From the NCBI GenBank assembly GCA_965222075.1, contig OZ244937.1, forward strand, positions 1,920,001-1,984,000: a stretch of DNA of 64,000 nucleotides, written 5' to 3'. Origin of the DNA: Candidatus Latescibacterota bacterium. GTDB taxonomy: Bacteria; Latescibacterota; UBA2968; GCA-2709665. Shown one piece after another: positions 42,406 through 64,000 of the stretch; position 1 is the stretch's first letter; each line of letters starts with the position of its first letter. Position numbers and translations under genes: made by a program. Under the pieces are notes generated by a model. That model saw only the letters and a list, made by a program, of their open reading frames with translations, was not told the origin of the DNA and ran no database searches.

Positions 42406-43740
42406 TCAGTAAATCGGCAGATAGTGGTCAACCTCCCACTGGCTCACACTCTGGTGATACTGCCGCCACTCCTCGCGCTTGCACGCGATGTAGTAGTCCC
42501 CATAGACTTCCCCCAGCGCGCCCTTGACCACCTCGTCCTGCTCTAAGTAGTCGAGGGCCTCTCTGAGGGTCGAGGGCAGAAAACCGATGCCCCGCCGGTG
42601 CAGCTCCTCTTCAGGAACCTCGTAGAGGTTATCGTCGTTGCGCTCTCCCGGATCGATCTTGTTCTCGATCCCGTCCAGCCCGGCGGCAAGCATCGCCGAG
42701 CAGGCCAGGTAGGGGTTTGCCGAGCCGTCCACCGAACGGTTCTCAATACGTCCCGGCCCGGGAATGCGGATCATCTGCGTCCGGTTGGACGCGCCGTAGG
42801 TCACATACACCGGCGCCCACGAAGCCCCGGAGCGGGGCGCGCCCCGGACCAGCCGCTTGTAACTGTTGACGATCGGCGCCGCCACGGCGACCAGCGCCTT
42901 GGCATGTTTGAGGAGACCGCCGATAAACCAGTAGGCCTGCTCGGACAGGCCCATCTCATCCCCCTCGTCTAAAAACAGATTCGTCCTGTTATCTTCGTCC
43001 CACAGGCTCATGTGATAGTGCGCGCCGCTGCCCGTCAGGTGTGCAAAAGGCTTGGGCATAAAGGTCGCCAGCAGCCCGTACTGTTCGGCATTCACCTTAA
43101 CCATCCACCTGAAAAAGGTATGCCGGTCCGCCGTCGTCAGCGCGTTCGAGTAGTGCCAATTGATCTCGAACTGGCAGTTGGCGTCTTCGTGGTCGTTCGC
43201 ATAGGGGTCCCAGCCCAGTTCCTGCATGTATTTGATCAGCGTCGTCATCACATCCAAATTCCGGTGCAGCGTTACCAGGTCGTAGCAGGGCTTTTCCAGG
43301 ATATCAAGCGGGTCGAACGGCGCATACTGCCCGCTCTCATCCTGTTTGAGCAGCATGAACTCGGCTTCGACACCCACATTGAAGAAATACCCGCTCTCCC
43401 CGGCCTTCTCCAGCTGCCGCTGCAAAATCGTGCGCGGGCAGTAGTCCCACGGCTTATCTTCAACGTGGATATTACCCGCCACCCACGCCGTGTTCTTGCG
43501 CCACGGCAGAACCGTAAGCGAACCAAAATCGGGGAGATTCGCCATATCCGGATCGTGCGGCCCCTGCCCCATGTTGCCCGCTGCGAAACCTGCAAACCCC
43601 GCCCCCTCCGCTGCCATATCGTCCAGGTGCGTCACCGGCACCACCTTGGCCTTTGGCATCCCGTTCATCTCCACGAACGAGCAGAGGATAAATTCGATCC
43701 CTTTCTCGTTAACAAGCTCCTTAACCTGATCCAGCGTCAT
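42406..43740 (-). CDS. gmaS: Type III glutamate-ammonia ligase / gamma-glutamylmethylamide synthetase
   Basis: 'GAGFAGFA', 'DHEDANCQFEIN', 'ATFMPKPF', 'SGASWAP' and 'NRTQMIRIP' motifs of the GlnT/GmaS clade, in methylamine gene context. Confidence 0.85.
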   Translation of the reverse strand: MTLDQVKELVNEKGIEFILCSFVEMNGMPKAKVVPVTHLDDMAAEGAGFAGFAAGNMGQGPHDPDMANLPDFGSLTVLPWRKNTAWVAGNIHVEDKPWDYCPRTILQRQLEKAGESGYFFNVGVEAEFMLLKQDESGQYAPFDPLDILEKPCYDLVTLHRNLDVMTTLIKYMQELGWDPYANDHEDANCQFEINWHYSNALTTADRHTFFRWMVKVNAEQYGLLATFMPKPFAHLTGSGAHYHMSLWDEDNRTNLFLDEGDEMGLSEQAYWFIGGLLKHAKALVAVAAPIVNSYKRLVRGAPRSGASWAPVYVTYGASNRTQMIRIPGPGRIENRSVDGSANPYLACSAMLAAGLDGIENKIDPGERNDDNLYEVPEEELHRRGIGFLPSTLREALDYLEQDEVVKGALGEVYGDYYIACKREEWRQYHQSVSQWEVDHYLPIY

Positions 43741-43770
43741 AATCGACTCCCCTCCCTCTAAAATAAAAGG

Positions 43771-44001
43771 TTAGAGATTTTTCTGGTTGTTCTGAATCGT
43801 CTGAATAAGAGTGTCGTCGTGATCCAGGTTTTCCATCTCTTCCCTGTAGCTCGAACATTCAAACCTCATCTGCCAGACCGTATACACAACCCAGAAAACA
43901 AAACAGATCACGAACAGCAGGCCCTCTGTCCCCACAAAGGGATATATAGGCCCCATGTCTACCGGATTCCCTCCCCAGCTCTCAACAAGACCTGTCCTCA
44001 T
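43771..44001 (-). CDS. Small single-TM membrane protein of methylamine/amt clusters
   Basis: 76 aa; 'GPIYPFVGTE' followed by a TM helix; AAGGAGG RBS. Confidence 0.65.
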   Translation of the reverse strand: MRTGLVESWGGNPVDMGPIYPFVGTEGLLFVICFVFWVVYTVWQMRFECSSYREEMENLDHDDTLIQTIQNNQKNL

Positions 44002-44049
44002 CCTTCACCTCCTTGAATGAATAAAGCCCCATCAATCCCAAATCCGCAA

Positions 44050-45735
44050 TCAAAAGAGTCCCACCGTCTGTCCCTTCTCGTCAAAATCGATCGACTCCGC
44101 AGAAGGCACCCTGGGAAGGCCGGGCATGGTCATAATATCGCCTGCCAGCACCACCACGAACCCGGCGCCTGCGGAAACCCGGACATCACGGACGGGCAGG
44201 TCGAAATTTCTCGGCCTGCCCTTCAACCCCGGATCTGTGGACAGAGAATACTGGGTCTTTGCCATACAGATCGGCAGATCGCCATACCCTTCTCTCTCCA
44301 ACCGTCGGAACCTGGCCCTCAGGCTCTTGTCGCCCATAATATCGTTCGCCCCATAAATCTCCTGAGCGATCGTTCGGACCTTATCCCAGAGCCTGCACTT
44401 ATTCGGATACAGAAACCTGAAATCGCTCCTGGTCGTCTCGGCAACCTTCACCACCGTCCCTGCCAGCGCCTCTGCGCCTTCCCCGCCCCTCGCCCAGTGG
44501 TCGGCCTGCACGACCTCCACCCCCAGGTGGTCGCACTTATCCCGAACCAGCGCCACCTCCTCCGGCGTATCCGTCGAAAACGTATTGATCGCCACAACCC
44601 CCGGCAGGCCGAAGAGACGGATATTCTCGATATGCTTCTTGAGGTTCTCAATCCCCCTGTCCAGCGCCGCCATGTTGGGCCGCGTGAGTTCCTTTAACTC
44701 GACCCCGCCGTGGGATTTCAGCGCCCGCACCGTCGCAACCAGAACCACAACATCGGGACGAAGACCCGCCTGCCGGCACTTGATATTCAAAAACTTCTCC
44801 GCGCCCAGGTCTGCGCCGAACCCGGCCTCGGTAACCGTATACTCGGACAGCCTCATCGCCAGTTTAGTCGCCATCACCGAATTGCACCCGTGAGCGATAT
44901 TGGCAAACGGACCGCCGTGTACGATGGCCGGGTTGTTCTCCAGTGTCTGCACCAGGTTGGGCATGAGCGCATTCCGCAGCAACACCGCCATTGCACCGTG
45001 AACGTTGAGATACGCGGCCGTAATGGCCTTCCTCGAACGCGTATACGCCACGATGATTTTGCCCAGCCGGTCTCGCAGCTCCTCCAGCGACTCCGACAGA
45101 CATAGTATCGCCATCACCTCCGAAGCCACCGTAATGTCAAATCCGGACTCGCGGGGGAACGAATTGCCCGGACCGCCCAGGCCGATGACGATGTTCCGAA
45201 GCGCCCGGTCGTTCATATCCACAGCGCGTTTCCACACAACACGCCTCGGATCGATATCCAGCCGGTTTCCCTGGTGGATGTGATTGTCCAGCACGGCCGC
45301 CAGCAGGTTGTGCGCCGTGCCAATCGCGTGCATATCCCCCGTAAAGTGGAGGTTGACATCCTCCATCGGCACAACCTGGGCATACCCCCCGCCCGCCGCC
45401 CCTCCTTTCATCCCGAAACAGGGCCCCAGCGAAGGCTCGCGTAAGCAAACGGTGGCCTGCTTTCCGATCCGGTTCAATCCATCGCCCAGCCCCACCGCCG
45501 TCGTCGTCTTCCCCTCTCCCGAAGGCGTCGGATTAATCGAAGAAACCAGCACCAGCTTGCCAGCAGGCGCATTCTCCAGGCTGCGGTAGTAATCCACCGA
45601 AACCTTCGCCTTCAACTTCCCGTAAGGCTCGATATGCGCCTGATCGATCCCCAGCTTCTGAGCCACCTCCTCAATCGGAAGCAGTGCTGCCCGCCGCGCA
45701 ATCTCGATGTCCGGCGGCATCTCCCGCTTGCCCAT
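44050..45735 (-). CDS. fhs: Formate--tetrahydrofolate ligase
   Basis: 'TPSGEGKTT', '[12 protein letters not shown]', '[14 protein letters not shown]', '[14 protein letters not shown]' and 'IMTMPGLP' motifs. Confidence 0.97.
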
Positions 45736-45745
45736 AGCACCCCTT

Positions 45746-47161
45746 TCACCCTTCGTCTTGCGACACGCCTCCATCCCGCGCCGCTTCGAGCTCCACGCGA
45801 ATGATCTCATTCGCATCGTCCGATTCTGTCTCTATCCCCCGGTGGTCCATTCCCGCCAGTTCAACCTGCTGGGGAATTCTGAGCAGATTCAACCTTTTCA
45901 GAAGAAGGCCGAGGATGTAACAGGGCAGGAAACCGAGCACAACGAACATAATGATCGCACCGATGGTCTGCCCCCAGGGCGTAATGACCGCATAGGCGGA
46001 ATTGGGTGAACTTGGATACCCCCACAGCACAAACCCTGCAACAATAACCCCGATCACGCCAGCATATCCGTGAACGGCAACGGCGCCGACCGCATCGTCA
46101 ATTTTGAACTTCCGCTCCACCCAGTAGTGCAGCTTGTACATACACAACACCCCGAAGCCGCCGATAAGATGGGCCTGCAGCGGATGGTACAGGTCGTTTC
46201 CCGCCGAAGCGGTAATAATGCCCGCCAGTCCCCCCGAAAACGTCCAGTAGGGATCGCCCTTGGACACAAAATATCCCGCGATCAACCCTCCGGCCAGCGA
46301 CATCAAAAAGTTAAACGTAATCGCGCTCAACGTCGTGGGCGTCAGATAGATCGTCGTGGCCGAGAAAAACGTCCTGGCATCGGAAGCATCGACATCCCAG
46401 ATCGGCACATTGCAGGCGGCGTAAAATCCCCAGAACCCGGTATAGATCAGAAACAGCCCGATGACGACCAGCCAGGTGTTGTGCGGAGGGAAATTCCGGG
46501 GCGTCCCATCCGGGCGAAACCTCCCGATTCTCGGGCCCAGATGGTAGAGAATTGCCAGTGCCGATCCCCCGCTGATGGCGTGGATCACCCCCGACGCATA
46601 GGCGTCGTGGTAGCCCAGCACCTGGACCATCCATCCATCCGCCGACCATCCCCACGCAGCGTCGATCACCCAGGTGATTGACCCCACCAGAACGGCGAAT
46701 AGCCAGAAGGCGCTCGACCGGATGCGTTCGATCACCGCCCCCGAAAGAATCGAACCCGCCGTCCAGGAAAAGATCAGAAACGCCGCCCAGAACACGCCGT
46801 TGATACGCGCCCATGCCGCCGTGTCCGCCGCCGACAGCCCCCCACCGTGGGGCTTCCCCCCCATGTGCGTTCCCATCAACTCGTTCCAGGGCTCCGCCCA
46901 GGCGGCGGATTTTAAGCCTCCTGTGATGCCCGGCCCGTTCTGAAAGGCGAAATAGATCCACCATCCGAAAAAGTAAAACGTCACCGTCACCAGCGGAATA
47001 AGCATCGCATTCTTCATCAGGGTGTGCATCATATTCTTGCGGCGAGAAACGCCCACTTCGTACAGGCAGAACCCCACGTGAATGAGGAACATCAGAACAA
47101 TGCACACCCAATAGTAGAACTCTGTAAAAATAACCGACAATGCACTCAGTTCATTCTCCAT
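45746..47161 (-). CDS. amt: Ammonium transporter family protein (probably methylamine-associated)
   Basis: '[10 protein letters not shown]', 'LGPRIGRF' and '[12 protein letters not shown]' with the twin-His retained; about 11 TMs. Confidence 0.88.
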
Positions 47162-47198
47162 AGGTCTATCTCCCTCCCGGTCCTGCGTTGGCCTGCGG

Positions 47199-48539
47199 TT
47201 AGCTCCACGGAAACGGGCTGTTTGACACCGGGTGCAGCCTCCCCTCGGCGTAACGCGAAAAGCGAAAGGGCGCCAGCATGGCGCTTTCATGTCCCATAAT
47301 CTCTTCCGCGACCAGCTCTCCCACGCCAATCATCTTGTACCCATGGTTGGAATCGGCAATGATGTAGCAGTTCTCGCAGAACACGTCGAACACCGGGAAG
47401 CTGTCCGGCGTAAACGCCCCCAGCCCCCCTGAAGGATCATCGCTTTTATAATATTTGAACTTGCCCTCAAAACGCTTCTGGCAGAAGGCCAGCGCCGAAC
47501 ACCACATGCGGGCGAAATCCTCGCCCGCCACAAAATCGGGCGACTTGGGGCCGTAAGGGTCCACTTTCACCTCGTCCGGATCGGTCTCAACCCTGTAGGG
47601 CATACCGCCCCCCTGGACGCCGCCGAAGCAGAAATCCGGCTTGTAGTAAATGCCCCACAGCGCCTCGGTGATCAGGGAGCCGTCCACGTCCGAATACAGC
47701 GGCACATCGGTGTCTACGTGGATCACGGGGGGCATCTTTCCGTCGTTGGTCTTCTGGAAGTCGGGATCAACGCCCAGCGTGCCCTCCTGCAAACACCAGT
47801 AGGTCCACATCCGGATATCGTGGTGCATCCTGCCGTCGCGGCCCTTGATACTGACCGTCCCGGGCAGGTCCAGCATCTCCCAGACCGACTTGATCCAGGG
47901 CCCCGCGCCCACCACCACGTAATCCGTCTGAATCACGTTCCGATCAGTCACCACGCCCGAGATCGCCTTCCCCGAGAATTGAAATCCGGTGACCCGGACG
48001 CCGGAGAGAATCTGCACACCCTCGTTTTGCGCTTTGGCAGCCAGGCCTTCCATTGAGGCCTTGTTGTTGGCATACCCTCCCTTCTTCTCGTGTAGGACCG
48101 ACGTAATTCCCCTGGCCTGCCAGTCGTGAAAAATGCCTTTCATATACGCCTTGCAGTCGGCTTCTCCCTCGATAAATTCGGAGGGGTAGCCGATCTCTTT
48201 CTGCTGTGCGGCAATGCTGGCCACGTCCGTGTGCATCACCTCGGGGCTGATCTGCATGTAGCCCACCGGATGGTAACTGTATACCCCGGGGTCGCTTTCC
48301 CATACCTGAACGCTGTGGGCCATCAGCTCGCGCATCGCCGGCTGGTAATAGTTGTTGCGCACCACCCCGCATGCAATCCCCGACGCCCCGGCGGCGATCC
48401 CCGTCTTGTCCACAATGAGAACGTCCGAGCCGCTTCCCCTCCCACTCGCCTTCAACGCAAGCGCGAGGTGGTAACCGGTACTCAGCCCGTGAACGCCGGC
48501 GCCGATAATCACATATCTGGAAGCCTCAGGCACCCCCAT
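47199..48539 (-). CDS. mgdA: N-methylglutamate dehydrogenase subunit A-like FAD oxidoreductase
   Basis: 'IIGAGVHGLST', 'GASGIACGVVRNNYYQPAM' and 'DSNHGYKMIGVG' motifs typical of MgdA; gene context. Confidence 0.75.
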   Translation of the reverse strand: MGVPEASRYVIIGAGVHGLSTGYHLALALKASGRGSGSDVLIVDKTGIAAGASGIACGVVRNNYYQPAMRELMAHSVQVWESDPGVYSYHPVGYMQISPEVMHTDVASIAAQQKEIGYPSEFIEGEADCKAYMKGIFHDWQARGITSVLHEKKGGYANNKASMEGLAAKAQNEGVQILSGVRVTGFQFSGKAISGVVTDRNVIQTDYVVVGAGPWIKSVWEMLDLPGTVSIKGRDGRMHHDIRMWTYWCLQEGTLGVDPDFQKTNDGKMPPVIHVDTDVPLYSDVDGSLITEALWGIYYKPDFCFGGVQGGGMPYRVETDPDEVKVDPYGPKSPDFVAGEDFARMWCSALAFCQKRFEGKFKYYKSDDPSGGLGAFTPDSFPVFDVFCENCYIIADSNHGYKMIGVGELVAEEIMGHESAMLAPFRFSRYAEGRLHPVSNSPFPWS

Positions 48540-49020
48540 CGGTCGTACTCCCAACAAGCTGCGTGTAATTTCCGCCATAAAAAATCAGCGGACGGCCCTC
48601 ATTCGCATTCCCCGCCACAATCTCGCCAACAAAAATATCGTGGTCACCGCCGGGAAAAATATCGGTCAAATAACAGTCCACAAACGCCAGCCCCTCCGCC
48701 AGGATCGGAGCGCCCGTCTCCGCCTCGGTGAGCTTCAGGTTGGAGAAATCTTTCGGGCCGGGGGCCGCGAACTGCCGGGAAACCGCCTCCTGTTCGTCTG
48801 TCAGCACATTCATCGCGAAGCACTTGCCCTGCGTTAGCGATCCGTGCATCTGGTTGCGCTTATCCACCGCCACCAGAACCAGCGGCGGGTCCAGCGACAG
48901 CGACGCAACCGCATTCGCCGTCATTCCGCAGAGTTGGCCCTCGTGACGCGTGGTCACCACCGTCACCCCCGTTGCAAAACAGCCCATAATCCGCCGCTGT
49001 TCCATCGCATCGAACGCCAT
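48526..49020 (-). CDS. Flavin reductase (HpaC/RutF-like)
   Basis: 'FATGVTVVT', 'GMTANAVASLSLDPPLVLV', 'GGDHDIFVGEI' and 'PLIFY' motifs. Confidence 0.92.
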   Translation of the reverse strand: MAFDAMEQRRIMGCFATGVTVVTTRHEGQLCGMTANAVASLSLDPPLVLVAVDKRNQMHGSLTQGKCFAMNVLTDEQEAVSRQFAAPGPKDFSNLKLTEAETGAPILAEGLAFVDCYLTDIFPGGDHDIFVGEIVAGNANEGRPLIFYGGNYTQLVGSTTDGGA

Positions 49021-54688: not shown

Positions 54689-54716
54689 AGTCCTTTCCTC
54701 TCTTTCATCGCTACAG

Positions 54717-55577
54717 CTACAGCACGATCTTTTTTTCTGTTGGCTCCAGGTTGTCATAATTCCAGAGCTGCTTGCCGGCAACGATCTTCTGCATGTTCTC
54801 CACCCCGTTGGGCGCCTCCAGACCGTACATGTCCAGCTTGCGTTTCAACCAGGCCGCTTCCAACCCGGTCATCTCGCCCCGCACGGCATCCACACCCAGA
54901 GACGCAATCCGTCCACCAACGTAGATCGCCCCATCGTACATGGAGTCTCCGAGATTTCCGTCGGCATCTCCCAGAATGACCATACGGCCGCGCTGCATCA
55001 TAAACCCGGACAGGATGCCGGTCCGCCCCCCGACAATAATCGTACCGCCCTTCATATTAATACCGGTCCGCGATCCCACATCCCCCTTGCAGACCAGGTC
55101 CCCTCCCCGGATAGCGGCCCCAAAGGACGACCCCGCATTCTTCTCAACCACCACCGTGCCCGCCATCACATTCTCCGCGCAGGACCATCCCACCCGTCCC
55201 CTGATCCGAACGTTCGGGCCATCGTTCAGGCCCACGCCAAAATATCCCAACGAGCCTTCGAAGTCCAGCTTGAGCCGGTTTAAAATGCCCACGCCGAGGG
55301 AATGTTTGGCGTTTGGGTTCTGAACGACAATGTGGCCATAGCCCTGTTCCATCAACGCCCGAATCTTCACATTCACGGCCGGTGAGTCCATATCGGCCGC
55401 ATCGAACTCGGCGCGCTTGTCAAAGTCCACATCACAACTGTCCGGATAGACCAGACTGTCGCTGTCACCGGCCTCGAAATCGAAAAAGGTCCGGTGCGTG
55501 CGCCCGGCCAACTTCTCGTCGTGCATCCCCATCCTGTACGATTTGTGCGCTTGCTCGTGCGCTTTTAATTCTGCCAT
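54717..55577 (-). CDS. mgsB: N-methylglutamate synthase subunit B (GXGXG beta-helix domain)
   Basis: GltB/FwdC-like GxxMxGG repeats; lies between the amidotransferase and FMN subunits. Confidence 0.8.
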   Translation of the reverse strand: MAELKAHEQAHKSYRMGMHDEKLAGRTHRTFFDFEAGDSDSLVYPDSCDVDFDKRAEFDAADMDSPAVNVKIRALMEQGYGHIVVQNPNAKHSLGVGILNRLKLDFEGSLGYFGVGLNDGPNVRIRGRVGWSCAENVMAGTVVVEKNAGSSFGAAIRGGDLVCKGDVGSRTGINMKGGTIIVGGRTGILSGFMMQRGRMVILGDADGNLGDSMYDGAIYVGGRIASLGVDAVRGEMTGLEAAWLKRKLDMYGLEAPNGVENMQKIVAGKQLWNYDNLEPTEKKIVL

Positions 55578-56500
55578 ACCCGCGCCTCTCCCGCGTAAGG
55601 ATCAATCGTATCGATCTCGTGGGGAAAAACGGTTCGAATCGCCACCTCTTCCGAAGCCAAGGCGATGCCGTCCTCCCCCTCGTAGAGCACCATCGGCTTG
55701 GCGGCCATCACATCCTTGGCCATCCCCAGGCTATCCGAGGTCGCCACCAGGTAAGTGAACACCCCGTCCAGTTCCTCCACCGATTGCGTCATCGCATCCT
55801 CAAGCGAGGTGCCCCCATCGATCTTATCGGCAATATAAACGGCGATCAGTTCAGAGTCGCAGTTGGAAACAAAGCGGTGTCCCCGGCGCTCCAGCTCCCG
55901 GCGTTTGGACCAGTAATTGGTAAGCTGCCCGTTGTGCACCACCGACACATCGCTGAAAGGATAGGCCCAGTAAGGGTGGGCCGAGCAGATGTCCACGTCC
56001 GACTCGGTTGCCATGCGCACATGGCCGATGGCGTGGGTGCCCACGAATTCCCCCAGCTTGTATTGTTGGGAGACCTGGCTGGCGTCGCCCAGGTCCTTCA
56101 CCAGTTCCAAGCCCTTGCCAATAGATAGAATCTCCGCGTCTTCCACGTCCTCGATATAGTCCGCAAAACGGCGCAGGTCGCCATCGTATTTAACGCGATA
56201 CAGGTACGCGTACTCCGTGGCCTGCTCGGCAGAAACGATCTCCCCGCCCAGCGACTGGATGCGTTCGTCCACCGCTGCTCTGCGCGCTTTGATCTGATCG
56301 TGGATCTCGAAGCCGCTGGCGAGATCCTCGTTTTCTGCAACCTTGAACCGCATGGCCAGCTCGCCCGCCCTGGGCGTGCCATAAATCGCGAACCCCGCCG
56401 AATCCGGCCCTCGGTGTTTCATCGACTGAAGCATCAACGTCATCTCCCTGCCGATTGCTCCCGTCTTCCCCCGGTGAATAATTCCAGCAATCCCGCACAT
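55565..56500 (-). CDS. mgsA: N-methylglutamate synthase subunit A (class II glutamine amidotransferase)
   Basis: N-terminal 'MCGIAG', 'HRGPDSAG', 'GHVRMATES', 'VHNGQLTN' and 'DSE' motifs. Confidence 0.8.
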   Translation of the reverse strand: MCGIAGIIHRGKTGAIGREMTLMLQSMKHRGPDSAGFAIYGTPRAGELAMRFKVAENEDLASGFEIHDQIKARRAAVDERIQSLGGEIVSAEQATEYAYLYRVKYDGDLRRFADYIEDVEDAEILSIGKGLELVKDLGDASQVSQQYKLGEFVGTHAIGHVRMATESDVDICSAHPYWAYPFSDVSVVHNGQLTNYWSKRRELERRGHRFVSNCDSELIAVYIADKIDGGTSLEDAMTQSVEELDGVFTYLVATSDSLGMAKDVMAAKPMVLYEGEDGIALASEEVAIRTVFPHEIDTIDPYAGEARVWQN

Positions 56501-56513
56501 AGCCGTCTTGCTC

Positions 56514-57995
56514 CTATGGCAAACAATCCCAGTACGTCTCCATATCCCAATCCGTTACCGTGGCCAGAAAACGCTCCCACTCGTCCCGCTTGTAGTGCAT
56601 ATACACGTCGTACATATCGCCGGGCAGGGCCGACTTGATCACCTCGTCCTGCGCCAGCTTATCCAGCGCCTCCCCAAGCGACAGCGGCAGCTTCGTCACC
56701 TCTTTCCCCTCTTCAATCGCCTCGTAAATATTCCGCTGCTCCGGCTCGCCCGGGTCCAGTTCCCGCCGGATGCCATCTTCGAAGGCCTTCAACAGCGCCC
56801 CGGCCAGCAAGTAGGGGTTCACCATCGCGTCAACGGCGCGATACTCAAAGCGGCCCGGGCCGGAAATACGCAGCCCACAGGTGCGGTTCTGAAAGCCCCA
56901 ATCGGTATAGACCGGCGCCCAGAAGCCGGTCTCCCAGAGCCGCCGGTAGGAGTTGACCGTGGAACAGCCGATCGCCGTGAGCGCGGGCAAATGCTCCGTT
57001 ACCCCTCCGATACACTGCAACCCCGTTGGCGCCGGCTTCTTCTCTCCGGGCAGCGGCTCAAACGTATTCTGGCCTCCCTCCCGGTGGAGGAACGCGCCTT
57101 CCATCCCCGGGAGTTCATCGTTGCCCAGGAGGTTGACCACATCCTCACCCCCTCGCCACAAAGACAGGTTGTGGTGGCAGCCCGACGCCGACACCCCCAT
57201 AAAAGGCTTGCACATAAAACAGGCGATCAGGTCGTGCTCGCGCGCCACCTGAGCGCAAATCTGGCGATAGGTTGTCAACCGGTCGCAGGTGCGAAGCGCC
57301 TCGTCGAAGGTAAAATTCAACTCCAGCTGACCCGGAGCGTCCTCGTGGTCCCCCTGGATCATATCCAGCCCCATCGCCCGGCCGTAGTCGATCACCTGCA
57401 TCACCACCGGCCGGAGGGACTCAAACTGGTCGATGTGGTAACAATACGGCTTGCTGAACCCGTCTCCCGGCTTGCCGTCCGGCCCTTTCTGCAGCCACAT
57501 CATCTCCGGCTCGGCGCCGTGCCGCATGTGCAGCCCGTCGTGCTCCTCCTGGAACTGCGCCTGGATCCGCCGCAGGTTGCCGCGGCAGTCCGCCGTCAGA
57601 AACGCTCCGGCATCCTCTTCCTCTTCCCGGTTGCGGAACAGCGTACAAAAGACCCGTCCCACCCGCTTGTCCCAGGGCAGTTGAACAAATGTCTCGGGGT
57701 CCGGAATGCCCACCAGTTCCCAGGCCTCGGGGCCGTAGCCGATGTAATTGTCATAGCGGTCCATAAACAGGTTGGCCGTCGCACCGTAAACCAGTTGAAA
57801 GCCGCGCTGGGCAGTCCGATCCCAGTGGTCGGCAGGAATCCCCTTCCCCACCACACGGCCCGTCACTGAAATGAACTGGTAGTAAATATACGCAATCCCA
57901 AGGGCGTCGATCTTCGTGCGAACGTCCTTCACAAGCTCGTCGCGGCCTTCGCTCTGCACATAAGCCTCAAGATCTGTAGTCGTGCCGTTCGACAT
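56514..57995 (-). CDS. Divergent glutamine synthetase family (gamma-glutamyl-amine ligase) protein
   Basis: 'GAEPEM', 'DHEDAPGQLELN', 'FMCKPF', 'NSYRRL', 'NRTCGLR' and 'EYR...NPYL' motifs. Confidence 0.85.
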   Translation of the reverse strand: MSNGTTTDLEAYVQSEGRDELVKDVRTKIDALGIAYIYYQFISVTGRVVGKGIPADHWDRTAQRGFQLVYGATANLFMDRYDNYIGYGPEAWELVGIPDPETFVQLPWDKRVGRVFCTLFRNREEEEDAGAFLTADCRGNLRRIQAQFQEEHDGLHMRHGAEPEMMWLQKGPDGKPGDGFSKPYCYHIDQFESLRPVVMQVIDYGRAMGLDMIQGDHEDAPGQLELNFTFDEALRTCDRLTTYRQICAQVAREHDLIACFMCKPFMGVSASGCHHNLSLWRGGEDVVNLLGNDELPGMEGAFLHREGGQNTFEPLPGEKKPAPTGLQCIGGVTEHLPALTAIGCSTVNSYRRLWETGFWAPVYTDWGFQNRTCGLRISGPGRFEYRAVDAMVNPYLLAGALLKAFEDGIRRELDPGEPEQRNIYEAIEEGKEVTKLPLSLGEALDKLAQDEVIKSALPGDMYDVYMHYKRDEWERFLATVTDWDMETYWDCLP

Positions 57996-58016: not shown

Positions 58017-58712
58017 TCAACTTGCCTCCAACGCCTGCAACGCAGCCCGACCGACCGGAACCACCCCCAATTCTTGCCCACTCTCTAAGAGGATATCCCA
58101 CAGATATGCGCCAAGTGAACGAGCGCCGATGATTGAAAACGCCGTCAGCGGACCGATATCCCGCCGGATCACAAGCTGGGTCGTCTTGGCAACGCTGCTC
58201 TGCCTGGCCGCACCATCGGGAAACGCCTCGGAATAAAAATCCAGCCCGCACACCTTGCGCATCAGCGCCCTGCTCGCCGGGCCGATCACGCGGATTTCCG
58301 ACCGCCCGTGGGTCACGTTCGTCACCGTGACAAACAGGCCGGCCTCCTGTACCGACGCCGTCACGCTTTTCAGTGTTGCGCCCTCCCCGCCAGGCGGCAT
58401 GCGAATAAAAAAGAGGTCATTCCGCAGGCGATAGACGTGGTCCGTCTCAACCGCATCCCCGTCACCAACGGTAAGCCCGGACAGGCCGAAAGCCGCCTGG
58501 ATAACCGCCTCCGCCTCCAGGCCTTCGACTGTGAGCTTGCCGTTGGGCGTCTCGTCGGCCAGCACAACGCCTTCCCGGGCCGCAGCGACCTCGGCCCCCA
58601 CCGTGGTATAGGCCTCTGCAACCAGCCAGCCCTGGTACTCGACAAACTGCGCTTCACGCTGCTGTGCAGCAGCGTGCAAAGGCGTCAATTTGACCGCCGC
58701 GGACATCGTCAC
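58017..58712 (-). CDS. soxG: Sarcosine oxidase gamma / MgdD-like subunit
   Basis: GcvT-like fold, 'KVCGLDF' and 'YLWDILLE' motifs; last gene of the beta-delta-alpha-gamma run. Confidence 0.75.
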   Translation of the reverse strand: MTMSAAVKLTPLHAAAQQREAQFVEYQGWLVAEAYTTVGAEVAAAREGVVLADETPNGKLTVEGLEAEAVIQAAFGLSGLTVGDGDAVETDHVYRLRNDLFFIRMPPGGEGATLKSVTASVQEAGLFVTVTNVTHGRSEIRVIGPASRALMRKVCGLDFYSEAFPDGAARQSSVAKTTQLVIRRDIGPLTAFSIIGARSLGAYLWDILLESGQELGVVPVGRAALQALEAS

Positions 58713-61630
58713 ATCTTCAACCTTTCTCCCCTGGGATCGTAAAAGGCCCCGTGGTGAACACGGGCCTCTTCTAAGGATTCATTCATATAAATCGTAAAAG
58801 CGGCCCCATTCCGGGCAGCCAGATCCGCCGGCAGCCAGCACAGCCCGATCACCTCCTTCAGCGTGGGGCTGAACCTGCAGGAGGTGACCCAGCCGATAAT
58901 CTCCAGCTTCCCGTCCGGGGAGGGTGTGACAATCTGCAGCCCCTCCTCGGGAACCCCCCCGGGCCTGGCCATCTTGAAGCCCACCAGCCGCCTCCTGGGC
59001 CCCTCTTTTGAAACCCGCACCAGATTGCGTTTCCCCAGAAAGTCGCGCTTATCCAGCTTCACCGCCCACTCCATATCGGCCGAAATCGGATCCGTCAGCG
59101 CATCGGTATCCTGTCCGACAATCATGTGGCCCTTCTCCAGCCTCAGCACCCGCTGCGCCTCCATCCCAAAGGGCGAAATCCCGAATTCCTCTCCCGCATC
59201 CATCAAGGCCTCCCACAGATGGAGGGCATACCCGGACGGACAGTGGACCTCGTAGGACAGTTCCCCCGTAAACCCGATCCGAAGCAGCCGGCAGGGCACA
59301 CTCGCCACCCTGGCGGATCGAATGCGCATATAGGCGAACCCCTGGTTGGAAAGATCCCGGTCCGTCAGCTTTTGCAGCACCGCCCGCGCCTGCGGGCCGG
59401 CCAAATTGAACGCGGAGTAAGTCTCCGTCAGATCGACCGCATGCACGCCACCTCCCCACCCCGACTGCATCCACCACTGTATCCACTCGTAAACGCCCGT
59501 CGCACCGGAGGACGTGGTGCTCATATACCACTCCTCTTCCCTCACATGGGCGCACACCCCGTCGTCCATCACCACCCCTTCGTCGTTGCACATCGCCCCG
59601 TAGCGCACCCGCCCCAGGCCCAGCTTGCGCCACCGGTTCACATAGAGCCGTTCGAGCAACCCGGGCACACCGGGACCGGTCAGCTGCAGCTTGCCCAGCG
59701 TGCTCACGTCGATGATGCCGACCCGCTCGCGCACGGCCTGCACTTCGGCGGCCGGGTCCCCATAGTGTTCCGGGCGCAGCCACAGCCCGGACACCATCAT
59801 TTTGGCGCCCCGCGCCAGGTGCCAGTCGTGAACCCCGGTCACCTGTACCGGTTCCATATTCTGTCCGGCCAACGCGCCCAGTGTCACAGGAACAACCGGA
59901 GGCCGCGACGTCGTCCTGCCGGTCTCCCGGACCGTCCATCCGTTGGCGCGGGCGCACAGGTGGATGGTGTTCATCGAACACATTCTCCCCTGGCAGGGGC
60001 CCATCGAAATCGTACTGTACCGCTTCAGCAGCTCAATGCTGGTGTAGCCTTCTGCGATCGATGTCTCCAGATCCTGGTCGGTCACATCCTCACAAAAGCA
60101 CAAAAACCGCTTCTTTTTGCCCGGCACAAGCGTCCGGGGAGACGTACGCCCCGGTTCGGCGGCCTTCTGCCGAGCCAGTGCGGAGATCTCACCTGTCTTC
60201 GGCGCGCTCCCCAGGCTAAGATAAGCGGCAGCGTTTGCGCCGGCCAGCCGGCCTTCGTCAATCTGCGTATCAACCGCGTGTGTCCCCGCTGCTCGCCCGG
60301 CCTCGTACACGCCCGGCGGCAGGTCAACCGGCAGGTTCTCGGCCCGGTCGGAGTCGTAGTCCGATTTGCCGCCCGCCATATACACCAGCCCGTGGTCCGG
60401 CGTCCACCCCATACTGACCGCGATCAGATCGCATTTCAGCGACTGCGCAGGCAGGTCGGAGCCGACCCGGACAATCACCGCACCCCGAACCGCCCCCGAA
60501 CCGCGCGCATGCAAAACCGTATGCCCGTAGAAAACCGGAACCCCGGCGGAAGCCAGCGCCTCTGCATGTGGGCTGGCACTGGCCTCCCGCTCGTCCACAA
60601 CGGCCGCCACGCTCACCCCCGCAGCGTGGAGGTCGGCGGCTACGGCCCACCCGTCGTCGTTGGCCGTTACAATCGCGGCCCTCCTGCCGATGACAACGCC
60701 GTAGAGATGGAGCAGGCGCTGCACCCCGCTGCCCAGCATCACGCCCGGCAGGTCGTTGTTGCCAAACAGCAGCGGCGTTTCAACAGCCCCGGTTGCCGCC
60801 ACCAGCGACTTCGCCCGAACCTTGAACAGGCGCGTCCCCCTCACGGCCGAGAGCCAGTTGTCCTGGTACCAGCCCAGCACCGCCGTATCGGTATAAACCG
60901 CGATGTTTGGCTGTCCATCAAGCGCTGCCAGAAGGTCCGACAGCGTCCCGGAGGCGGTATCCCACGGGGCAAACCGGAGGTGGCCGCCCAGACTCGGATT
61001 CTCGTCGAACAACAGCACCCGCGCACCCTGTTCGGCGGCTGCTAAAGCCGCACCCATCCCGGCCGGACCGCCGCCGATCACGGCGACGTCGCCATAGAGA
61101 TATTCCTTATCAAATTTACCCGGCGTGGAACGGAGATCGACCTCACCCAGGCCGGCGGCGTGGCGCAACACACGCTCGTAGAGCGGCCACATCGATCGGG
61201 GCCGGATGAACGTCTTGTAGTAGAACCCCGCCGGCATAAAGCGGGTGCCCAGCTGGACCAGGGACAGCAGATCGTGAGAAAGCGACGGCCAGGCGTTCTG
61301 GGGCCGCACGTCCATATCCGCTTCCACCCGCCGCTGGCAGGACCGCACATTCGGTTCATCGCCCACCTGCACCAAACAGTTGGGGCAGTGCCCGGCGCAG
61401 CAGAGCAACCCGCGCGGGCGGTGGTACTTGAACGAACGGCTCAACACGCTCACGTCTGCCGCTGCCAGCGCCGAAGCGATGGTATCGCCCGGATGCGCGG
61501 CGTAGGCCTTACCCTCAAAAAAGAACCGGATGGTGGAAGAACGGTCGATCACCTCACCTTTTTGGGGGGAAAGCCGGTTGGATCTCACGACCTGCCCCGG
61601 GTCGGCCGCCACAACCTGTTCTGTCTGCAC
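58709..61630 (-). CDS. soxA: Sarcosine oxidase alpha / MgdC-like subunit
   Basis: 'GDTIASAL...RSFKYHRPRG', 'IGGGPAG', 'LKRYSTISMGPCQG' and a C-terminal GcvT domain 'FTGELSYE'; GTG start inferred. Confidence 0.88.
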   Translation of the reverse strand: MQTEQVVAADPGQVVRSNRLSPQKGEVIDRSSTIRFFFEGKAYAAHPGDTIASALAAADVSVLSRSFKYHRPRGLLCCAGHCPNCLVQVGDEPNVRSCQRRVEADMDVRPQNAWPSLSHDLLSLVQLGTRFMPAGFYYKTFIRPRSMWPLYERVLRHAAGLGEVDLRSTPGKFDKEYLYGDVAVIGGGPAGMGAALAAAEQGARVLLFDENPSLGGHLRFAPWDTASGTLSDLLAALDGQPNIAVYTDTAVLGWYQDNWLSAVRGTRLFKVRAKSLVAATGAVETPLLFGNNDLPGVMLGSGVQRLLHLYGVVIGRRAAIVTANDDGWAVAADLHAAGVSVAAVVDEREASASPHAEALASAGVPVFYGHTVLHARGSGAVRGAVIVRVGSDLPAQSLKCDLIAVSMGWTPDHGLVYMAGGKSDYDSDRAENLPVDLPPGVYEAGRAAGTHAVDTQIDEGRLAGANAAAYLSLGSAPKTGEISALARQKAAEPGRTSPRTLVPGKKKRFLCFCEDVTDQDLETSIAEGYTSIELLKRYSTISMGPCQGRMCSMNTIHLCARANGWTVRETGRTTSRPPVVPVTLGALAGQNMEPVQVTGVHDWHLARGAKMMVSGLWLRPEHYGDPAAEVQAVRERVGIIDVSTLGKLQLTGPGVPGLLERLYVNRWRKLGLGRVRYGAMCNDEGVVMDDGVCAHVREEEWYMSTTSSGATGVYEWIQWWMQSGWGGGVHAVDLTETYSAFNLAGPQARAVLQKLTDRDLSNQGFAYMRIRSARVASVPCRLLRIGFTGELSYEVHCPSGYALHLWEALMDAGEEFGISPFGMEAQRVLRLEKGHMIVGQDTDALTDPISADMEWAVKLDKRDFLGKRNLVRVSKEGPRRRLVGFKMARPGGVPEEGLQIVTPSPDGKLEIIGWVTSCRFSPTLKEVIGLCWLPADLAARNGAAFTIYMNESLEEARVHHGAFYDPRGERLKM

Positions 61631-61631
61631 G

Positions 61632-61910
61632 CTATGCGTCTCCGATCGCCTGATTGGATTGCCAGAGATACGTCCTGACCACCTCGTTTGTGCGGGTATG
61701 CCGCTCGGCCAGAAACCAGACCCCGCACCCGGCATTGTGAAACCACCACTCCGTCTGCACCCCCATCTTGTTATTGCACAGATAGAGATAGTCGGCCCAC
61801 ACCGCATCGTCCACCGCCTGAGGGTCCTGGGGACGCGGGTTGTATTCCCCCCCAAACCGAAACTCACTCACACTGCGACCCCCGCAGTTGGGACAGGCCA
61901 GAATGAGCAT
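61632..61910 (-). CDS. soxD: Sarcosine oxidase delta / MgdB-like subunit
   Basis: Zn-binding pattern 'CPNCGGR..SEFRFGGE', 'EWWFHNAGC..WF...R.T.TNE'. Confidence 0.88.
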   Translation of the reverse strand: MLILACPNCGGRSVSEFRFGGEYNPRPQDPQAVDDAVWADYLYLCNNKMGVQTEWWFHNAGCGVWFLAERHTRTNEVVRTYLWQSNQAIGDA

Positions 61911-61931
61911 AGACAACCCCTTCATAAATGT

Positions 61932-63170
61932 CTAATGTCCTACCGACGCCGCGCCCTTTTCTCCGACCAGACGGCCTTTTTCAAAACGGGACAAACGGAA
62001 GGACGCAATCAGGTCCGGAGTGCGTCCGGTGGCGATGCATTCGGCCAGCATTTTGCCGCAAATCGGAGAAGCCTTAAAACCGTACGTCCCCCACCCCACA
62101 TCCACCAGAAACCCCTCCACGGGCGTAAACCCCATAATCGGACTGTAGTCGGGGGTCATGTCACACAGGCCGGCCCACTGGCGCAGGATACGGACCTGGC
62201 TCAGGGACGGAAAGAGCTCAAGCACGTGCCCGGCGATGCCTTCCAGAAACGAGAGGGAAGAATCCATGGAATAGGAGGCAAACGGATCCACGCTGGCGCC
62301 CATCACCAGTTCGCCCCGGTCGGACTGGCTGATGTAGACGTGCAGGCTGCCGGAAACAACGACCACGTCTAAGAAGGGCTTGAGCGGCTCGGTCACGCAG
62401 GCCTGCAGGGGGAACGTGGTCAGGGGCAGCTTAACCCCGGCCATGTCCGCAATCGTGGACCCCCATCCGGCGGTGGCGTTGAGCACCGTCCCGGTTTTGA
62501 TACGGCCGCGATTCGTCTCCACCCCGCTCACCTTCCCGTTCCGCACCTCCATCCCGGTCACTTCCGTCTGCTGGTGAATGTGCACGCCGCGCACGTCTGC
62601 ATGGTGCGCATAGCCCCACACGACCGCATCGTGCCGGATGATGCCCCCGGGCGGGTGGTAGAGCGCAGCCAGGATGGGATAACGGGGATGGTCGCTGAGG
62701 TCAAGACAGGGACAGAGGCGGGCAATCTCGTCGGGCCGGATCAGATACGACGCGACCCCCTCAAGCCGGTTCACCTCGGCCCGGCGGCGCATCGTATTCA
62801 CCGCGCCGTCGGTATGGGCCAGCGTCAGGTGCCCCCGCTGGGAAAACATCACGTTGAAATCCAGCTCGGTGGCCATCTGCTCGTAGAGCTTCACGCTCTC
62901 ATCGTAAAACCGGACACCTTCGGGGGTGAGGTAATTGCTGCGGATAATGGCGGTATTGCGCCCGCTGCCGCCCGAGCCGATATAGCGCTTTTCCAGCACC
63001 GCCACATCGGTGATGCCGTATTCGCAGGCCAGATAGTAGGCACAGGCCAGCCCGTGCGCTCCCCCGCCGATAATCACCGCATCATAGCGGTCTTTCAGGC
63101 TGTGAGACCGCCACATCCTGGGCAGCCGACCGTTGCCGTTGAGGACCTGACGGATCAGTTTGATAGACAT
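61932..63170 (-). CDS. soxB: Sarcosine oxidase beta subunit
   Basis: 'IIGGGAHGLA', 'GRNTAIIRSNY', 'RHDAVVWGYA', 'GWGTYGFKASP' and C-terminal 'GAASVGH'. Confidence 0.9.
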   Translation of the reverse strand: MSIKLIRQVLNGNGRLPRMWRSHSLKDRYDAVIIGGGAHGLACAYYLACEYGITDVAVLEKRYIGSGGSGRNTAIIRSNYLTPEGVRFYDESVKLYEQMATELDFNVMFSQRGHLTLAHTDGAVNTMRRRAEVNRLEGVASYLIRPDEIARLCPCLDLSDHPRYPILAALYHPPGGIIRHDAVVWGYAHHADVRGVHIHQQTEVTGMEVRNGKVSGVETNRGRIKTGTVLNATAGWGSTIADMAGVKLPLTTFPLQACVTEPLKPFLDVVVVSGSLHVYISQSDRGELVMGASVDPFASYSMDSSLSFLEGIAGHVLELFPSLSQVRILRQWAGLCDMTPDYSPIMGFTPVEGFLVDVGWGTYGFKASPICGKMLAECIATGRTPDLIASFRLSRFEKGRLVGEKGAASVGH

Positions 63171-63290
63171 AATAATCCGGACGCTTGGGGAATTTCAGCC
63201 GGGCAGGCAGCAAAAAAACGCTTACATAATTGCGCTTGATCGGCCAAATGTCAAGCCAAAAATCGTAGGATTACGAACGCATCGTGGCTT

Positions 63291-64000
63291 CTAATGTCTC
63301 CCTTCCGCCCAGCCCGGCCCCCCACCAAACACCCGGTTCGTTCCCGCCAGCGGAATCCCGCACGTCATGGACGCCTCTGACGTCAATGCGCGCAGATCTT
63401 CAGGATCCAGGTCGTGCACGTCGGCCTTTCCGCATGCCCGGGCGAGAATCTGGACCTCCGACGTCATCGCCTGTAGCAGATTGGCGACCCGCTCCGCCGC
63501 CTCGTCGATATCCAGACGCGCCATCAGGTCGGGGTCCTGCGTGGTAATGCCAACAGGGCAACGCCCGGTGTGGCAGTGGTGGCAGTAATGCGGCTCGGTG
63601 TCCAGCTTTTGGTAATCCGAAACGTAAATCGGCTTGTTGCAGTTAAGTGCAATCAGGGCCGCCGTCCCAATATAAACGGCATCCGCCCCCAGCGCCATAG
63701 CCTTCGCCGCATCCACCCCGTTTCGGATGCCCCCCGCAATAATAAGCTGCACCTCGCCGAACACCCCGATATCTTCCAGCGCCGCCCGCGCCTCGCACAC
63801 CGCGGCCAGCGTGGGAATGCCCGTGTGTTCCTGAGAAATCTCGGCCGACGCCCCTGTGCCGCCCTCCATGCCGTCTACCACAACAACATCTGCGCCCGCC
63901 TTTGCCGCCAGCCTCACATCGTCAAACACCCGGGTCGCCCCCATCTTCACAAAAATCGGCGCCTGCCAGTCGGTCGCCTCCCGCAGTTCCTCGATCTTGA
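63291..64000 (-). CDS. Second FMN-binding glutamate synthase domain protein (MgsC-like), 5' end outside the window
   Basis: Frame open to the window edge (KIEELREATDWQAPIFVKMGATRVFDDV); 'GGIRNGVDAAKA' and 'CHHCHTGRCPVG'; paralog of 53297-54688. Confidence 0.85.
   Translation of the reverse strand, partial: KIEELREATDWQAPIFVKMGATRVFDDVRLAAKAGADVVVVDGMEGGTGASAEISQEHTGIPTLAAVCEARAALEDIGVFGEVQLIIAGGIRNGVDAAKAMALGADAVYIGTAALIALNCNKPIYVSDYQKLDTEPHYCHHCHTGRCPVGITTQDPDLMARLDIDEAAERVANLLQAMTSEVQILARACGKADVHDLDPEDLRALTSEASMTCGIPLAGTNRVFGGGPGWAEGRH

Follow-up and report, generated by a model that had tools for sequence, protein, structure and literature searches.

The stretch of DNA analysed here, hereinafter the window, consists of 64,000 nucleotides (nt) from Candidatus Latescibacterota bacterium (assembly GCA_965222075.1, contig OZ244937.1, positions 1,920,001 to 1,984,000 of the forward strand). 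The genome is a single contig of 5.36 Mb, 97.6% complete with 5.2% contamination, and its closest public relatives are metagenome-assembled genomes (MAGs) labelled Latescibacterota or Gemmatimonadota. An island of 19 minus-strand genes for the metabolism of methylated amines extends from position 42406 to ~2.4 kb beyond the window end, with the gene order, in the direction of transcription, mgsA1-mgsB1-mgsC1-soxB-soxD-soxA-soxG-gsX-mgsA2-mgsB2-mgsC2-hyp143-acad-tdm-flavin reductase-dao-Amt-fhs-gmaS. The intergenic gaps range from -13 to 120 nt, except for the apparent overlaps created by over-long open reading frame (ORF) calls and a 309-nt gap ahead of gmaS. The original prediction, made from the sequence of the window, described this region as a methylamine island with a duplicated glutamylation pathway that might act on dimethylamine (DMA). 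The genes it named (tdm, two ligases of the glutamine synthetase (GS) family, two mgsC-like genes, amt, fhs and soxB) are all there on the minus strand, as confirmed by family profiles; it overlooked a gene with the acyl-CoA dehydrogenase (ACAD) fold, a flavin reductase gene and the conserved ORF denoted here hyp143. The focus of the analysis is a set of six genes, dao, gsX, mgsA2, mgsB2, mgsC2 and hyp143, which form an old, horizontally shared cassette that, with about even chances as judged from comparative sequence evidence, substitutes for DMA monooxygenase (Dmm).

The cassette centers on gsX (56514–57995), which encodes a divergent GS-family ligase of 493 aa, a putative gamma-glutamyl-(di)methylamide synthetase. 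Next to it lie mgsA2 (55565–56500), encoding a class-II amidotransferase subunit of the N-terminal nucleophile (Ntn) type with GATase_6/7 matches; mgsB2 (54717–55577), the GXGXG subunit (PF01493, 48 bits); mgsC2 (53297–54781), the FMN glutamate-synthase-like subunit (PF01645, 309 bits), the real start of which is probably internal; and hyp143 (52813–53244), a conserved 143-aa ORF. Farther along the island, dao (47199–48539, with the ORF listed to 48578) encodes a stand-alone FAD amine oxidoreductase of ~446 aa that matches PF01266 over residues 22–237 only. MgsA2 retains the N-terminal Cys nucleophile (Met-Cys-Gly), so that the second set has the MgsABC architecture, in which three separate genes encode the amidotransferase, with its N-terminal Cys, the GXGXG protein and the FMN glutamate-synthase protein; no curated MgsABC family model matched, and the assignment is based on this architecture together with 38–58% identity to the other set in the island.

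That other set, along with several further genes, belongs to recognized families. The mgsC-like gene at 63291, one of the two in the original prediction, runs past the window end (63291–64000 in the window; the full gene, at L001:291-1697, encodes 468 aa and matches PF01645 with 328 bits), and just beyond the window it is joined by mgsB1 (L001:1707-2411, GXGXG domain PF01493) and mgsA1 (L001:2399-3388, GATase_6/7), which makes set 1 complete. Adjacent to it are the four subunits of a heterotetrameric N-methyl amino acid dehydrogenase, soxBDAG, equivalent to mgdABCD in the alternative nomenclature: the soxB/mgdA-type beta subunit (61932–63170; TIGR01373, 505 bits against a cut-off of 529; PF01266, 240 bits), the soxD/mgdB-type delta subunit (61632–61925), a 97-aa protein with a Cys-rich N-terminus that is so named because of its position between soxB and soxA and its size, the soxA/mgdC-type alpha subunit (58709–61867; TIGR01372, 871 bits over residues 102–1051; GCV_T, Fer2_4 and SO_alpha_A3 domains), which probably starts internally, near 61560–61635, and the soxG/mgdD-type gamma subunit (58017–58712; TIGR01375, 55 bits; PF04268 and GCV_T). 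The tdm gene (49034–51370) encodes trimethylamine N-oxide (TMAO) demethylase, which converts TMAO to DMA and a one-carbon (C1) unit; the protein scores 1256 bits with NF053776 (cut-off 1100) and has the Tdm domain architecture DUF1989 (PF09347), GCV_T (PF01571) and PF08669. At the end of the island, fhs (44050–45816), for formate-tetrahydrofolate ligase, scores 886 bits with NF010030 (cut-off 652), and the canonical gamma-glutamylmethylamide synthetase gene gmaS (42406–43740) scores 607 bits with TIGR03105 (cut-off 469.6); among the PDB chains, GmaS of the island matches the solved GmaS 7cql with 431 bits and 9qur (‘Glutamate--methylamine ligase’) with 416 bits.

Between these genes reside three more. 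The acad gene (51370–52764), with Acyl-CoA_dh N, M and C domains, encodes a flavoprotein that is a candidate oxygenase of a two-component trimethylamine (TMA) monooxygenase. On the other side of tdm, an NAD(P)H:flavin reductase of ~164 aa (~48526–49020) is detected through PF01613 (135 bits, residues 163–306 of the long ORF); the longest ORF extends to 49473, overlapping tdm, and contains an internal Met. A divergent Amt-family channel is encoded at 45746–47161 (longest ORF to 47329; PF00909, 199 bits; TIGR00836, 191 bits against a cut-off of 343). Amt-type orthologues with 59–82% identity are found near the cassette in 18 of the 80 gsX loci described below, and the channel may import a methylated amine.

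The two sets are not products of a recent event. The identity between set 2 and set 1 is 33% for the ligases, 38% for MgsA, 42% for MgsB and 58% for MgsC, and accordingly, these are old paralogues rather than a duplication within the island as had been assumed. The phyletic spread of set 2 can be gleaned from 80 gsX loci that were fetched with 10-kb flanks and share 68–97% identity with gsX. These loci come from at least five phyla, with Latescibacterota, Gemmatimonadota, Acidobacteriota, a Verrucomicrobiota (Moanabacter) MAG, Alphaproteobacteria and Gammaproteobacteria represented; the proteobacterial carriers include Dongiaceae, Gammaproteobacteria and many Hyphomicrobiales (Methyloceanibacter, Aestuariivirga, Taklimakanibacter), among them two cultured species, Taklimakanibacter lacteus and T. 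albus (loci L044 and L062). Beside gsX, mgsA2 is present in 76 of the 80 loci, mgsB2 in 73, mgsC2 in 57, hyp143 in 56 and dao in 53 (in 47 of these directly upstream on the same strand), followed by the Amt-type gene, tdm (12 loci) and the ACAD-fold gene (7 loci). For 64 loci, the fetched sequence reaches at least 4.5 kb past the downstream end of gsX, and 51 of these contain the unbroken run gsX-mgsA2-mgsB2-mgsC2-hyp143; of the 13 that do not, 11 belong to close relatives of the window genome whose island is interrupted after mgsB2. All five such split genomes that were tested have mgsC2 (89–91% identity) at the acad-tdm locus, directly upstream of acad. Megabases separate the two halves in G004, G006, G007 and G008, and in G002 the halves are on different contigs; an in-frame TGA is present in two of the five mgsC2 matches.

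The enzyme that completes the cassette is also different from what had been expected. The gene at 47199 had been taken for an MgdA-like beta subunit, but it encodes a stand-alone enzyme, dao, and not a subunit of a Sox/Mgd tetramer. The gene is found directly upstream of gsX in other genomes, and dao is the putative dehydrogenase that goes with the second ligase and synthase, whereas soxBDAG is the ordinary N-methylglutamate (NMG) dehydrogenase. By score, dao is not SoxB-like (62.6 bits with TIGR01373, cut-off 529), and in other genomes sox partners are absent beside dao and gsX. Its family profile and predicted structural model match sarcosine oxidase beta, L-proline dehydrogenase beta and dimethylglycine oxidase, so by profile and model dao has a sarcosine/dimethylglycine-oxidase fold. 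The sixth gene, hyp143, follows mgsC2 in 54 of the 80 loci and is strongly conserved: in an alignment (A1) of 20 sequences that represent several phyla, 59 columns of the ~110-aa core are invariant. It matches no Pfam or NCBIfam family; its AlphaFold model (predicted local distance difference test score (pLDDT) 73) has no Foldseek match in the PDB at E ≤ 0.001, and in the ESM Atlas it matches unnamed or unrelated clusters at 0.89–0.92, below the stated threshold for recognition. One possibility is that hyp143 encodes a hitherto overlooked subunit of either the second synthase or dao.

Within the GS family, gsX stands apart from canonical GmaS. A whole-genome tblastn search yielded three GS-family genes only, namely gsX, gmaS and a gene for a 510-aa relative near 2,166,000 that presumably is the housekeeping glutamine synthetase. 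The gsX protein is 33% identical to GmaS of the island, scores 295.6 bits with the GmaS equivalog model TIGR03105, below the curated cut-off, and matches 7cql with 184 bits. In a tree in which the characterized sequences are represented by PDB chains only, 28 gsX rows and 16 canonical GmaS rows fall on opposite sides of a starred branch, so that the divergent ligase forms a clade of its own. Protein database searches with gsX return thousands of relatives, the best 120 at 75–97% identity, and the named ones among these 120 are labelled merely ‘glutamine synthetase (family protein)’. A second gsX-like subclade, 55–58% identical, exists in a sample of 401 genomes from an alphaproteobacterial order, described below (G185, G092, G144, G258, G408 and G334), three genomes of which have both types.

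The residues of the active site suggest the type of substrate. When the numbering of RhGmaS is mapped by hand from HMMER alignments to 7cql_A, on the assumption of a 20-residue tag and with the residues taken from PMC7948447, the catalytic Asp177, Glu186 and Arg312 correspond to D216, E225 and R371 of gsX, which are invariant in 81 of 81 family sequences. The same holds for Y186, Q214, D216, E218, E225, N227 and K51, the counterparts of the proposed monomethylamine (MMA) pocket of RhGmaS (Tyr147, Gln175, Asp177, Glu179, Glu186, Asn188 and Lys30'). The position of the GS flap glutamate is occupied by an equally invariant Trp (W359, in the motif GFWAP), and the position aligned with the ammonium-binding Asp50'/Ala48' is Val, so that the hallmark of glutamine synthetases is missing here. 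Together, the Trp flap, the lack of Asp50' and the conserved catalytic and pocket residues indicate that gsX is a GmaS-like ligase of small amines rather than an ammonia-using glutamine synthetase. Around the pocket, the gsX family differs from GmaS by fixed changes (N to G215, N to P221 and D to H187, each in 81 of 81 sequences, and W to F228 in 74 of 81), the flap is five residues shorter than that of GmaS of the island, and gsX carries an insertion of ~24 residues compared with canonical GmaS. These differences fit an altered but related specificity. Table 1 of PMC7948447 reports that canonical GmaS uses DMA poorly, with a Km of 16 mM compared with 27 uM for MMA; because GmaS does turn over DMA, a secondary-amine product is within reach of the fold. 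Additionally, gsX sequences retain 68–97% identity across phyla, whereas GmaS of the island is merely 43–47% identical to alphaproteobacterial GmaS, and this tighter conservation points to a distinct, tightly constrained function.

A ligase for DMA would fill a conspicuous hole in the metabolic map of this organism. Flavin-containing monooxygenase (FMO)-type TMA monooxygenase (Tmm) is not represented, with no PF00743 matches in the whole genome, although the same control search was positive in 7 of 14 reference genomes. There are also no matches in the complete genome to PF11927, the family of the catalytic heme subunit of Dmm, an enzyme also known as heme-dependent oxidative N-demethylase (HODM); the reference controls for this search were silent, but other genomes were positive, 6 of 50 in one sample and 120 of 401 in another. 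The single PF00724 match in the genome is a 515-aa protein that consists of the old yellow enzyme (OYE) domain alone, without the C-terminal FAD/NAD domains, and the 60 best PDB chains listed for it include no TMA or DMA dehydrogenase. Thus, the absence of tmm, dmm and tmd/dmd that had been noted in the window holds for the entire 5.36-Mb genome, at the level of these profile searches. Given that tdm is present and proteins resembling Tmm, Dmm and the TMA and DMA dehydrogenases are lacking, DMA can be made from TMAO, and there is no known enzyme to remove it; as judged from sequence, this DMA gap is real across the whole genome.

The distribution of gsX across genomes bears directly on this gap. 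Carrier genomes were sampled by picking 50 of the genomes of the 80 loci for long contigs and taxon spread. In 48 of the 50 carriers, there is a canonical GmaS with a score that exceeds the curated cut-off. Hence the cassette comes on top of the NMG pathway, and the possibility that it replaces the canonical pathway was rejected because of this count. The tdm gene is present in 36 of the 50 (34 above the cut-off). PF11927 matches were detected in six carriers, and the three that were fetched are only 27–29% identical to the Dmm encoded next to tdm; such matches in gsX genomes were rejected as Dmm because the fetched copies are paralogues. Two PF11927 paralogues (L183 in G197 and L184 in G111), 27–28% identical to tdm-adjacent Dmm, are located ~1.7 kb from another GS-like ligase that is 27–30% identical to GmaS, an arrangement that looks like a different pairing of a ligase with an HODM-like protein.

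A less selective view comes from 401 genomes drawn evenly from the order of one alphaproteobacterial carrier, in which gsX was found in 48 genomes, tdm in 95 and PF11927 in 120. The expectation that the divergent ligase goes with tdm is borne out: tdm is present in 37 of the 48 gsX genomes compared with 58 of the 353 others. In this sample, 93 of the 95 tdm loci were fetched, and Dmm was considered authentic on the basis of adjacency to tdm and 67–100% identity to a reference copy from one locus (26 genomes), with 21 further genomes called by score, within the same range, and by coverage of the model. None of the 95 tdm genomes (E ≤ 1e-150) carries both gsX and authentic Dmm; 37 carry gsX only, 47 Dmm only and 11 neither; among the 85 genomes with Tdm above the cut-off, the respective numbers are 0, 33, 47 and 5. 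In other words, authentic Dmm is found in 0 of the 37 genomes with gsX and tdm and in 47 of the 58 other tdm genomes. The five genomes with neither are a mixed lot: G239 contains a gsX fragment at a contig end, G437 has mgsA2B2C2-hyp143 without gsX or dao, and the others are G093, G224 and G385, with short tdm contigs in G224 and G385 (11.1 and 8.8 kb). On the Tdm tree, which is a FastTree gene tree rather than a species tree and includes a long-branch group of divergent Tdm-like rows, the gsX and Dmm states interleave, with at least nine changes of gsX and at least seven changes of Dmm on starred branches.

The phylum of the window genome shows the same association. In a sample of 168 genomes, 22 have gsX and 17 have tdm; every one of these 17 also carries gsX, tdm occurs in 0 of the 146 gsX-negative genomes, and no tdm genome has a PF11927 match in the authentic score range. 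In many of these genomes, gsX and tdm are megabases apart, and therefore, their co-occurrence does not merely reflect the inheritance of one island as a whole.

The acad gene and the flavin reductase address the other missing step, the oxidation of TMA. The ACAD-fold protein has weak matches to the ACAD-fold oxygenases HsaA, DszC and SfnB; in the PDB, the best matches are ordinary acyl-CoA dehydrogenases at 111 bits, with the oxygenase DnmZ at ~50 bits, and by sequence it is indistinguishable from ordinary acyl-CoA dehydrogenases. The gene context is more informative. An ACAD-fold gene adjoins tdm in 11 of the 93 tdm loci (L103, L132, L136, L152-L154, L156, L157, L159, L161 and L162), 9 of which are in genomes with authentic Dmm and none of which contains tmm; by comparison, tmm adjoins tdm in 46 of the 82 tdm loci that lack an adjacent ACAD-fold gene. 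A PF01613 flavin reductase accompanies the ACAD-fold gene and tdm in some genomes, and in the window it flanks tdm on the side opposite to acad. Among the 50 carriers, tdm-adjacent Tmm and ACAD-fold orthologues are found in 16 genomes each and overlap solely in G043, where the copy is a 55% paralogue; six tdm carriers showed neither at the thresholds used, with the Tmm scores being near the E-value cut-off. Because the ACAD-fold gene co-occurs with Dmm and occupies the position of tmm, it is more likely a substitute for Tmm than for Dmm. The simplest reading of these patterns is that the ACAD-fold protein and the flavin reductase are a candidate two-component, non-homologous substitute for Tmm that would convert TMA to TMAO.

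Combining these observations, the island is proposed to encode a complete route from TMA or TMAO to glutamate-bound C1 units. The ACAD-fold oxygenase together with the flavin reductase would oxidize TMA to TMAO, and Tdm, by its family membership, would convert TMAO to DMA. DMA would then be joined to glutamate by gsX at the expense of ATP to form gamma-glutamyl-dimethylamide. MgsA2B2C2 would release DMA from the amide in the amidotransferase domain and attach it reductively to the 2-oxoglutarate/glutamate skeleton, yielding N,N-dimethylglutamate, from which a single oxidative demethylation by dao would produce N-methylglutamate. The SoxBDAG/MgdABCD dehydrogenase, judging by its family, would convert N-methylglutamate to glutamate and methylene-tetrahydrofolate, and free MMA would enter via canonical GmaS and MgsA1B1C1. 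The anatomy of the island, the family memberships and the distribution across genomes are established by the sequences; the substrates of gsX, MgsA2B2C2 and dao are inferred. The combined scheme, in which an ATP-driven, Dmm-independent DMA route with these particular intermediates operates alongside an ACAD-fold two-component replacement of Tmm in this lineage, is a tentative proposition that deserves somewhat less than even credence.

Each of the comparative tests that were run lends support to the DMA interpretation, and yet a series of observations weighs against it. The uncorrected Fisher p of ~1e-16 for the mutual exclusion of gsX and Dmm among the 95 tdm genomes overstates the case because related genomes are not independent. 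When nine independent pairs that differ in gsX are compared, Dmm changes in the opposite direction in ~4, stays unchanged in ~5 and never changes in the same direction as gsX (0 pairs), giving a sign test with a median p of 0.125, so that the phylogeny-aware test of the anti-correlation has the right direction but is underpowered. In the phylum of the window genome, the carriers belong to 6 of 49 genera and therefore represent few independent events. The gsX gene also occurs without tdm, in 11 of the 48 genomes of the order sample, 14 of the 50 carriers and 5 of the 22 carriers in the own phylum, and conversely, G437, a complete genome of 3.0 Mb (L098, L182), contains tdm, tmm and mgsA2B2C2-hyp143 with no gsX, dao or Dmm, which reflects either a decaying cassette or a ligase-independent form. 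All seven residues of the proposed amine pocket of RhGmaS are identical in gsX, and therefore, the sequence cannot separate DMA from MMA as the substrate. The predicted model of dao has a mean pLDDT of 61, with residues 248–381 unreliable, and informs on the fold family only. The search for TMA and DMA dehydrogenases covered the window genome only, and in the searched literature, N,N-dimethylglutamate and gamma-glutamyl-dimethylamide were not found as bacterial metabolites, the mentions of dimethylglutamate and dimethylglutamine being in the context of peptide natural products, drugs and cell metabolism. In G437, mgsA2-mgsB2-mgsC2-hyp143 adjoin tdm and tmm, and the upstream genes encode an efflux pump and an MscS channel.

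Some of these observations are what would be expected if the cassette were a second, self-contained NMG pathway for MMA, with gsX as a GmaS isoenzyme, MgsA2B2C2 as an NMG synthase and dao as a single-subunit NMG dehydrogenase or oxidase, employed under other conditions (affinity, oxygen, or nitrogen as opposed to carbon source), and the cell would excrete the DMA that Tdm generates or deal with it in some other way. The fully retained GmaS pocket, the fact that the cassette alone supplies one enzyme for each of the three steps of the NMG pathway, and the gsX genomes that lack tdm are all in line with this explanation, as is the description, in PMC5520151, of tdm-positive, dmm-negative SAR11 that may not degrade DMA. 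A second MMA pathway, however, predicts no relation to Dmm, which is contrary to the 0 of 37 against 47 of 58 distribution; it would be redundant nearly everywhere, given the canonical GmaS in 48 of the 50 carriers; and it does not fit the differently fixed residues around the pocket or the greater conservation of gsX across phyla compared with GmaS. This explanation is the main rival, although it is considered unlikely. Still more improbable is that the cassette handles another small amine, such as ethylamine, hydroxylamine, N-methylhydroxylamine or some other breakdown product of quaternary amines. Such a role would agree with the promiscuity of RhGmaS, which accepts ethylamine, hydroxylamine and propylamine (PMC7948447, Table 1), with the lack of a curated family model that would name gsX, hyp143 or dao, and with the uninformative labels of the named relatives among the best 120; it would leave without explanation both the link to tdm and the exclusion of Dmm, as well as the position of mgsC2 at the acad-tdm locus in the split islands.

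The substitution of Dmm by the gsX cassette has also to be weighed against the possibility that the ACAD-fold protein and the flavin reductase are themselves the missing DMA monooxygenase and that the cassette has nothing to do with DMA. Here, acad and the PF01613 reductase gene flank tdm on opposite sides, and amine-oxidizing ACAD-fold two-component enzymes do exist, DnmZ being among the PDB matches. However, the restriction of ACAD-fold orthologues to 16 of the 50 carriers leaves ~21 tdm-positive, Dmm-negative carriers without acad; in nine genomes, acad adjoins tdm in the presence of authentic Dmm; and the tmm counts (0 of 11 acad-tdm loci against 46 of 82 others, with the single overlap in the 55% paralogue of G043 among 16 carriers each) associate acad with the preceding step, making this alternative very improbable.

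In terms of protein families, the cassette appears, from the sequences, to be a variant on the known NMG-type pathway, with a ligase outside the GmaS clade and a dehydrogenase of another type. The NMG pathway (GmaS, MgsABC and MgdABCD) is known in Methylocella silvestris, Methyloversatilis and Methylobacterium, and the cassette shares with it a GS-like ATP-dependent ligase, a three-part Ntn glutamate-synthase-like enzyme and a flavin amine dehydrogenase, acting in the same logical order. The differences are that the cassette proteins belong to separate clades (33%, 38%, 42% and 58% identity), that the stand-alone dao takes the place of a SoxBDAG-type tetramer, and that the cassette includes the additional hyp143, accompanies canonical GmaS and excludes Dmm; the island carries a full canonical copy of the NMG pathway as well. 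With DmmDABC (HODM), the cassette shares the place in the pathway immediately after Tdm and frequent adjacency to tdm, and the two have complementary distributions, but the proteins are unrelated: Dmm uses O2 and NAD(P)H and frees MMA, whereas the proposed route would spend ATP and keep the amine bound to glutamate. Compared with Dmm, which requires O2, the proposed DMA step would be oxygenase-free only provided that dao is a dehydrogenase.

Gamma-glutamylation as the first committed step, in which a GS-family ligase joins an amine to the gamma-carboxyl of glutamate, is familiar from the degradation of isopropylamine (IpuC) and putrescine (PuuA) and from the aniline ligases, and a ligase reportedly acts on 1-naphthylamine. 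These routes differ from the one proposed here in that they start with primary amines and proceed through oxygenases or hydrolases that act on the gamma-glutamyl amide, with no MgsABC-type synthase involved. The closest parallel for dao is provided by dimethylglycine oxidase and dehydrogenase and the sarcosine oxidases, with which it shares the fold and, putatively, the removal of one methyl group from an N,N-dimethyl amino acid; unlike these enzymes, dao lacks a fused GcvT folate domain, has only the low score with the soxB model given above and includes the ~130 poorly modelled residues. Similarly, the ACAD-fold gene and FMO-type Tmm occupy the same position next to tdm and are mutually exclusive, but differ in fold (ACAD-like with a separate flavin reductase), the activity of the ACAD-fold protein being putative.

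In the searched literature, which did not extend to subscription journals and supplements, neither this cassette nor a DMA route mediated by glutamate was found to be described, and the same goes for a two-component or ACAD-type TMA monooxygenase. A study on metformin and DMA describes, in its available part, standard chromosomal DMA and TMA genes and plasmid NMG genes, with nothing on the cassette (PMC9699525). According to PMC5520151, the DMA step is a genetic bottleneck of the methylated-amine pathway, and many tdm-carrying bacteria lack dmm. If the proposed function is correct, the cassette would explain the complete use of TMAO and TMA in at least some of the Dmm-less lineages; among the carriers are sponge-associated Latescibacterota, Gemmatimonadota and Acidobacteriota, as well as Hyphomicrobiales from soil and Methyloceanibacter. 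Glutamate-mediated amine chemistry would then no longer be confined to primary amines but would include secondary ones, and surveys of climate-active amines would gain a new marker for the turnover of DMA; surveys that rely on tmm and dmm as markers would miss degraders of DMA and TMA in sponges, soils and sediments. Together with the putative Tmm substitute, this would mean that each of the two signature oxygenases in the textbook TMA pathway has a non-homologous replacement. The two cultured Taklimakanibacter carriers, in which tdm, tmm and the cassette are present and PF11927 has no match, make the idea directly testable.

A weak hint of transcription of the island in situ comes from contigs of two sponge metatranscriptome libraries (X17 and X20). 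These contigs match pieces of dao, tdm, mgsC2, mgsB2, gsX, soxA and soxB with at least 99% identity, and the gsX/mgsA2 and soxG/gsX junctions are each spanned by single contigs; such libraries can contain DNA, and uncovered stretches (e.g. 50710–52041) carry no meaning.

The remainder of the window, positions 1–42000, is unrelated to amines and encodes FG-GAP/beta-propeller proteins, DUF6785/DUF6784 pairs and an aspartokinase-like gene. Two tandem proteins of ~1275 aa (18634–22461 and 22468–26298) match FG-GAP and carrageenase-like beta-propellers, and two DUF6785/DUF6784 proteins (5312–7315 and 35805–37823) are encoded 30 kb apart, neither pair having a relation to the amine island.

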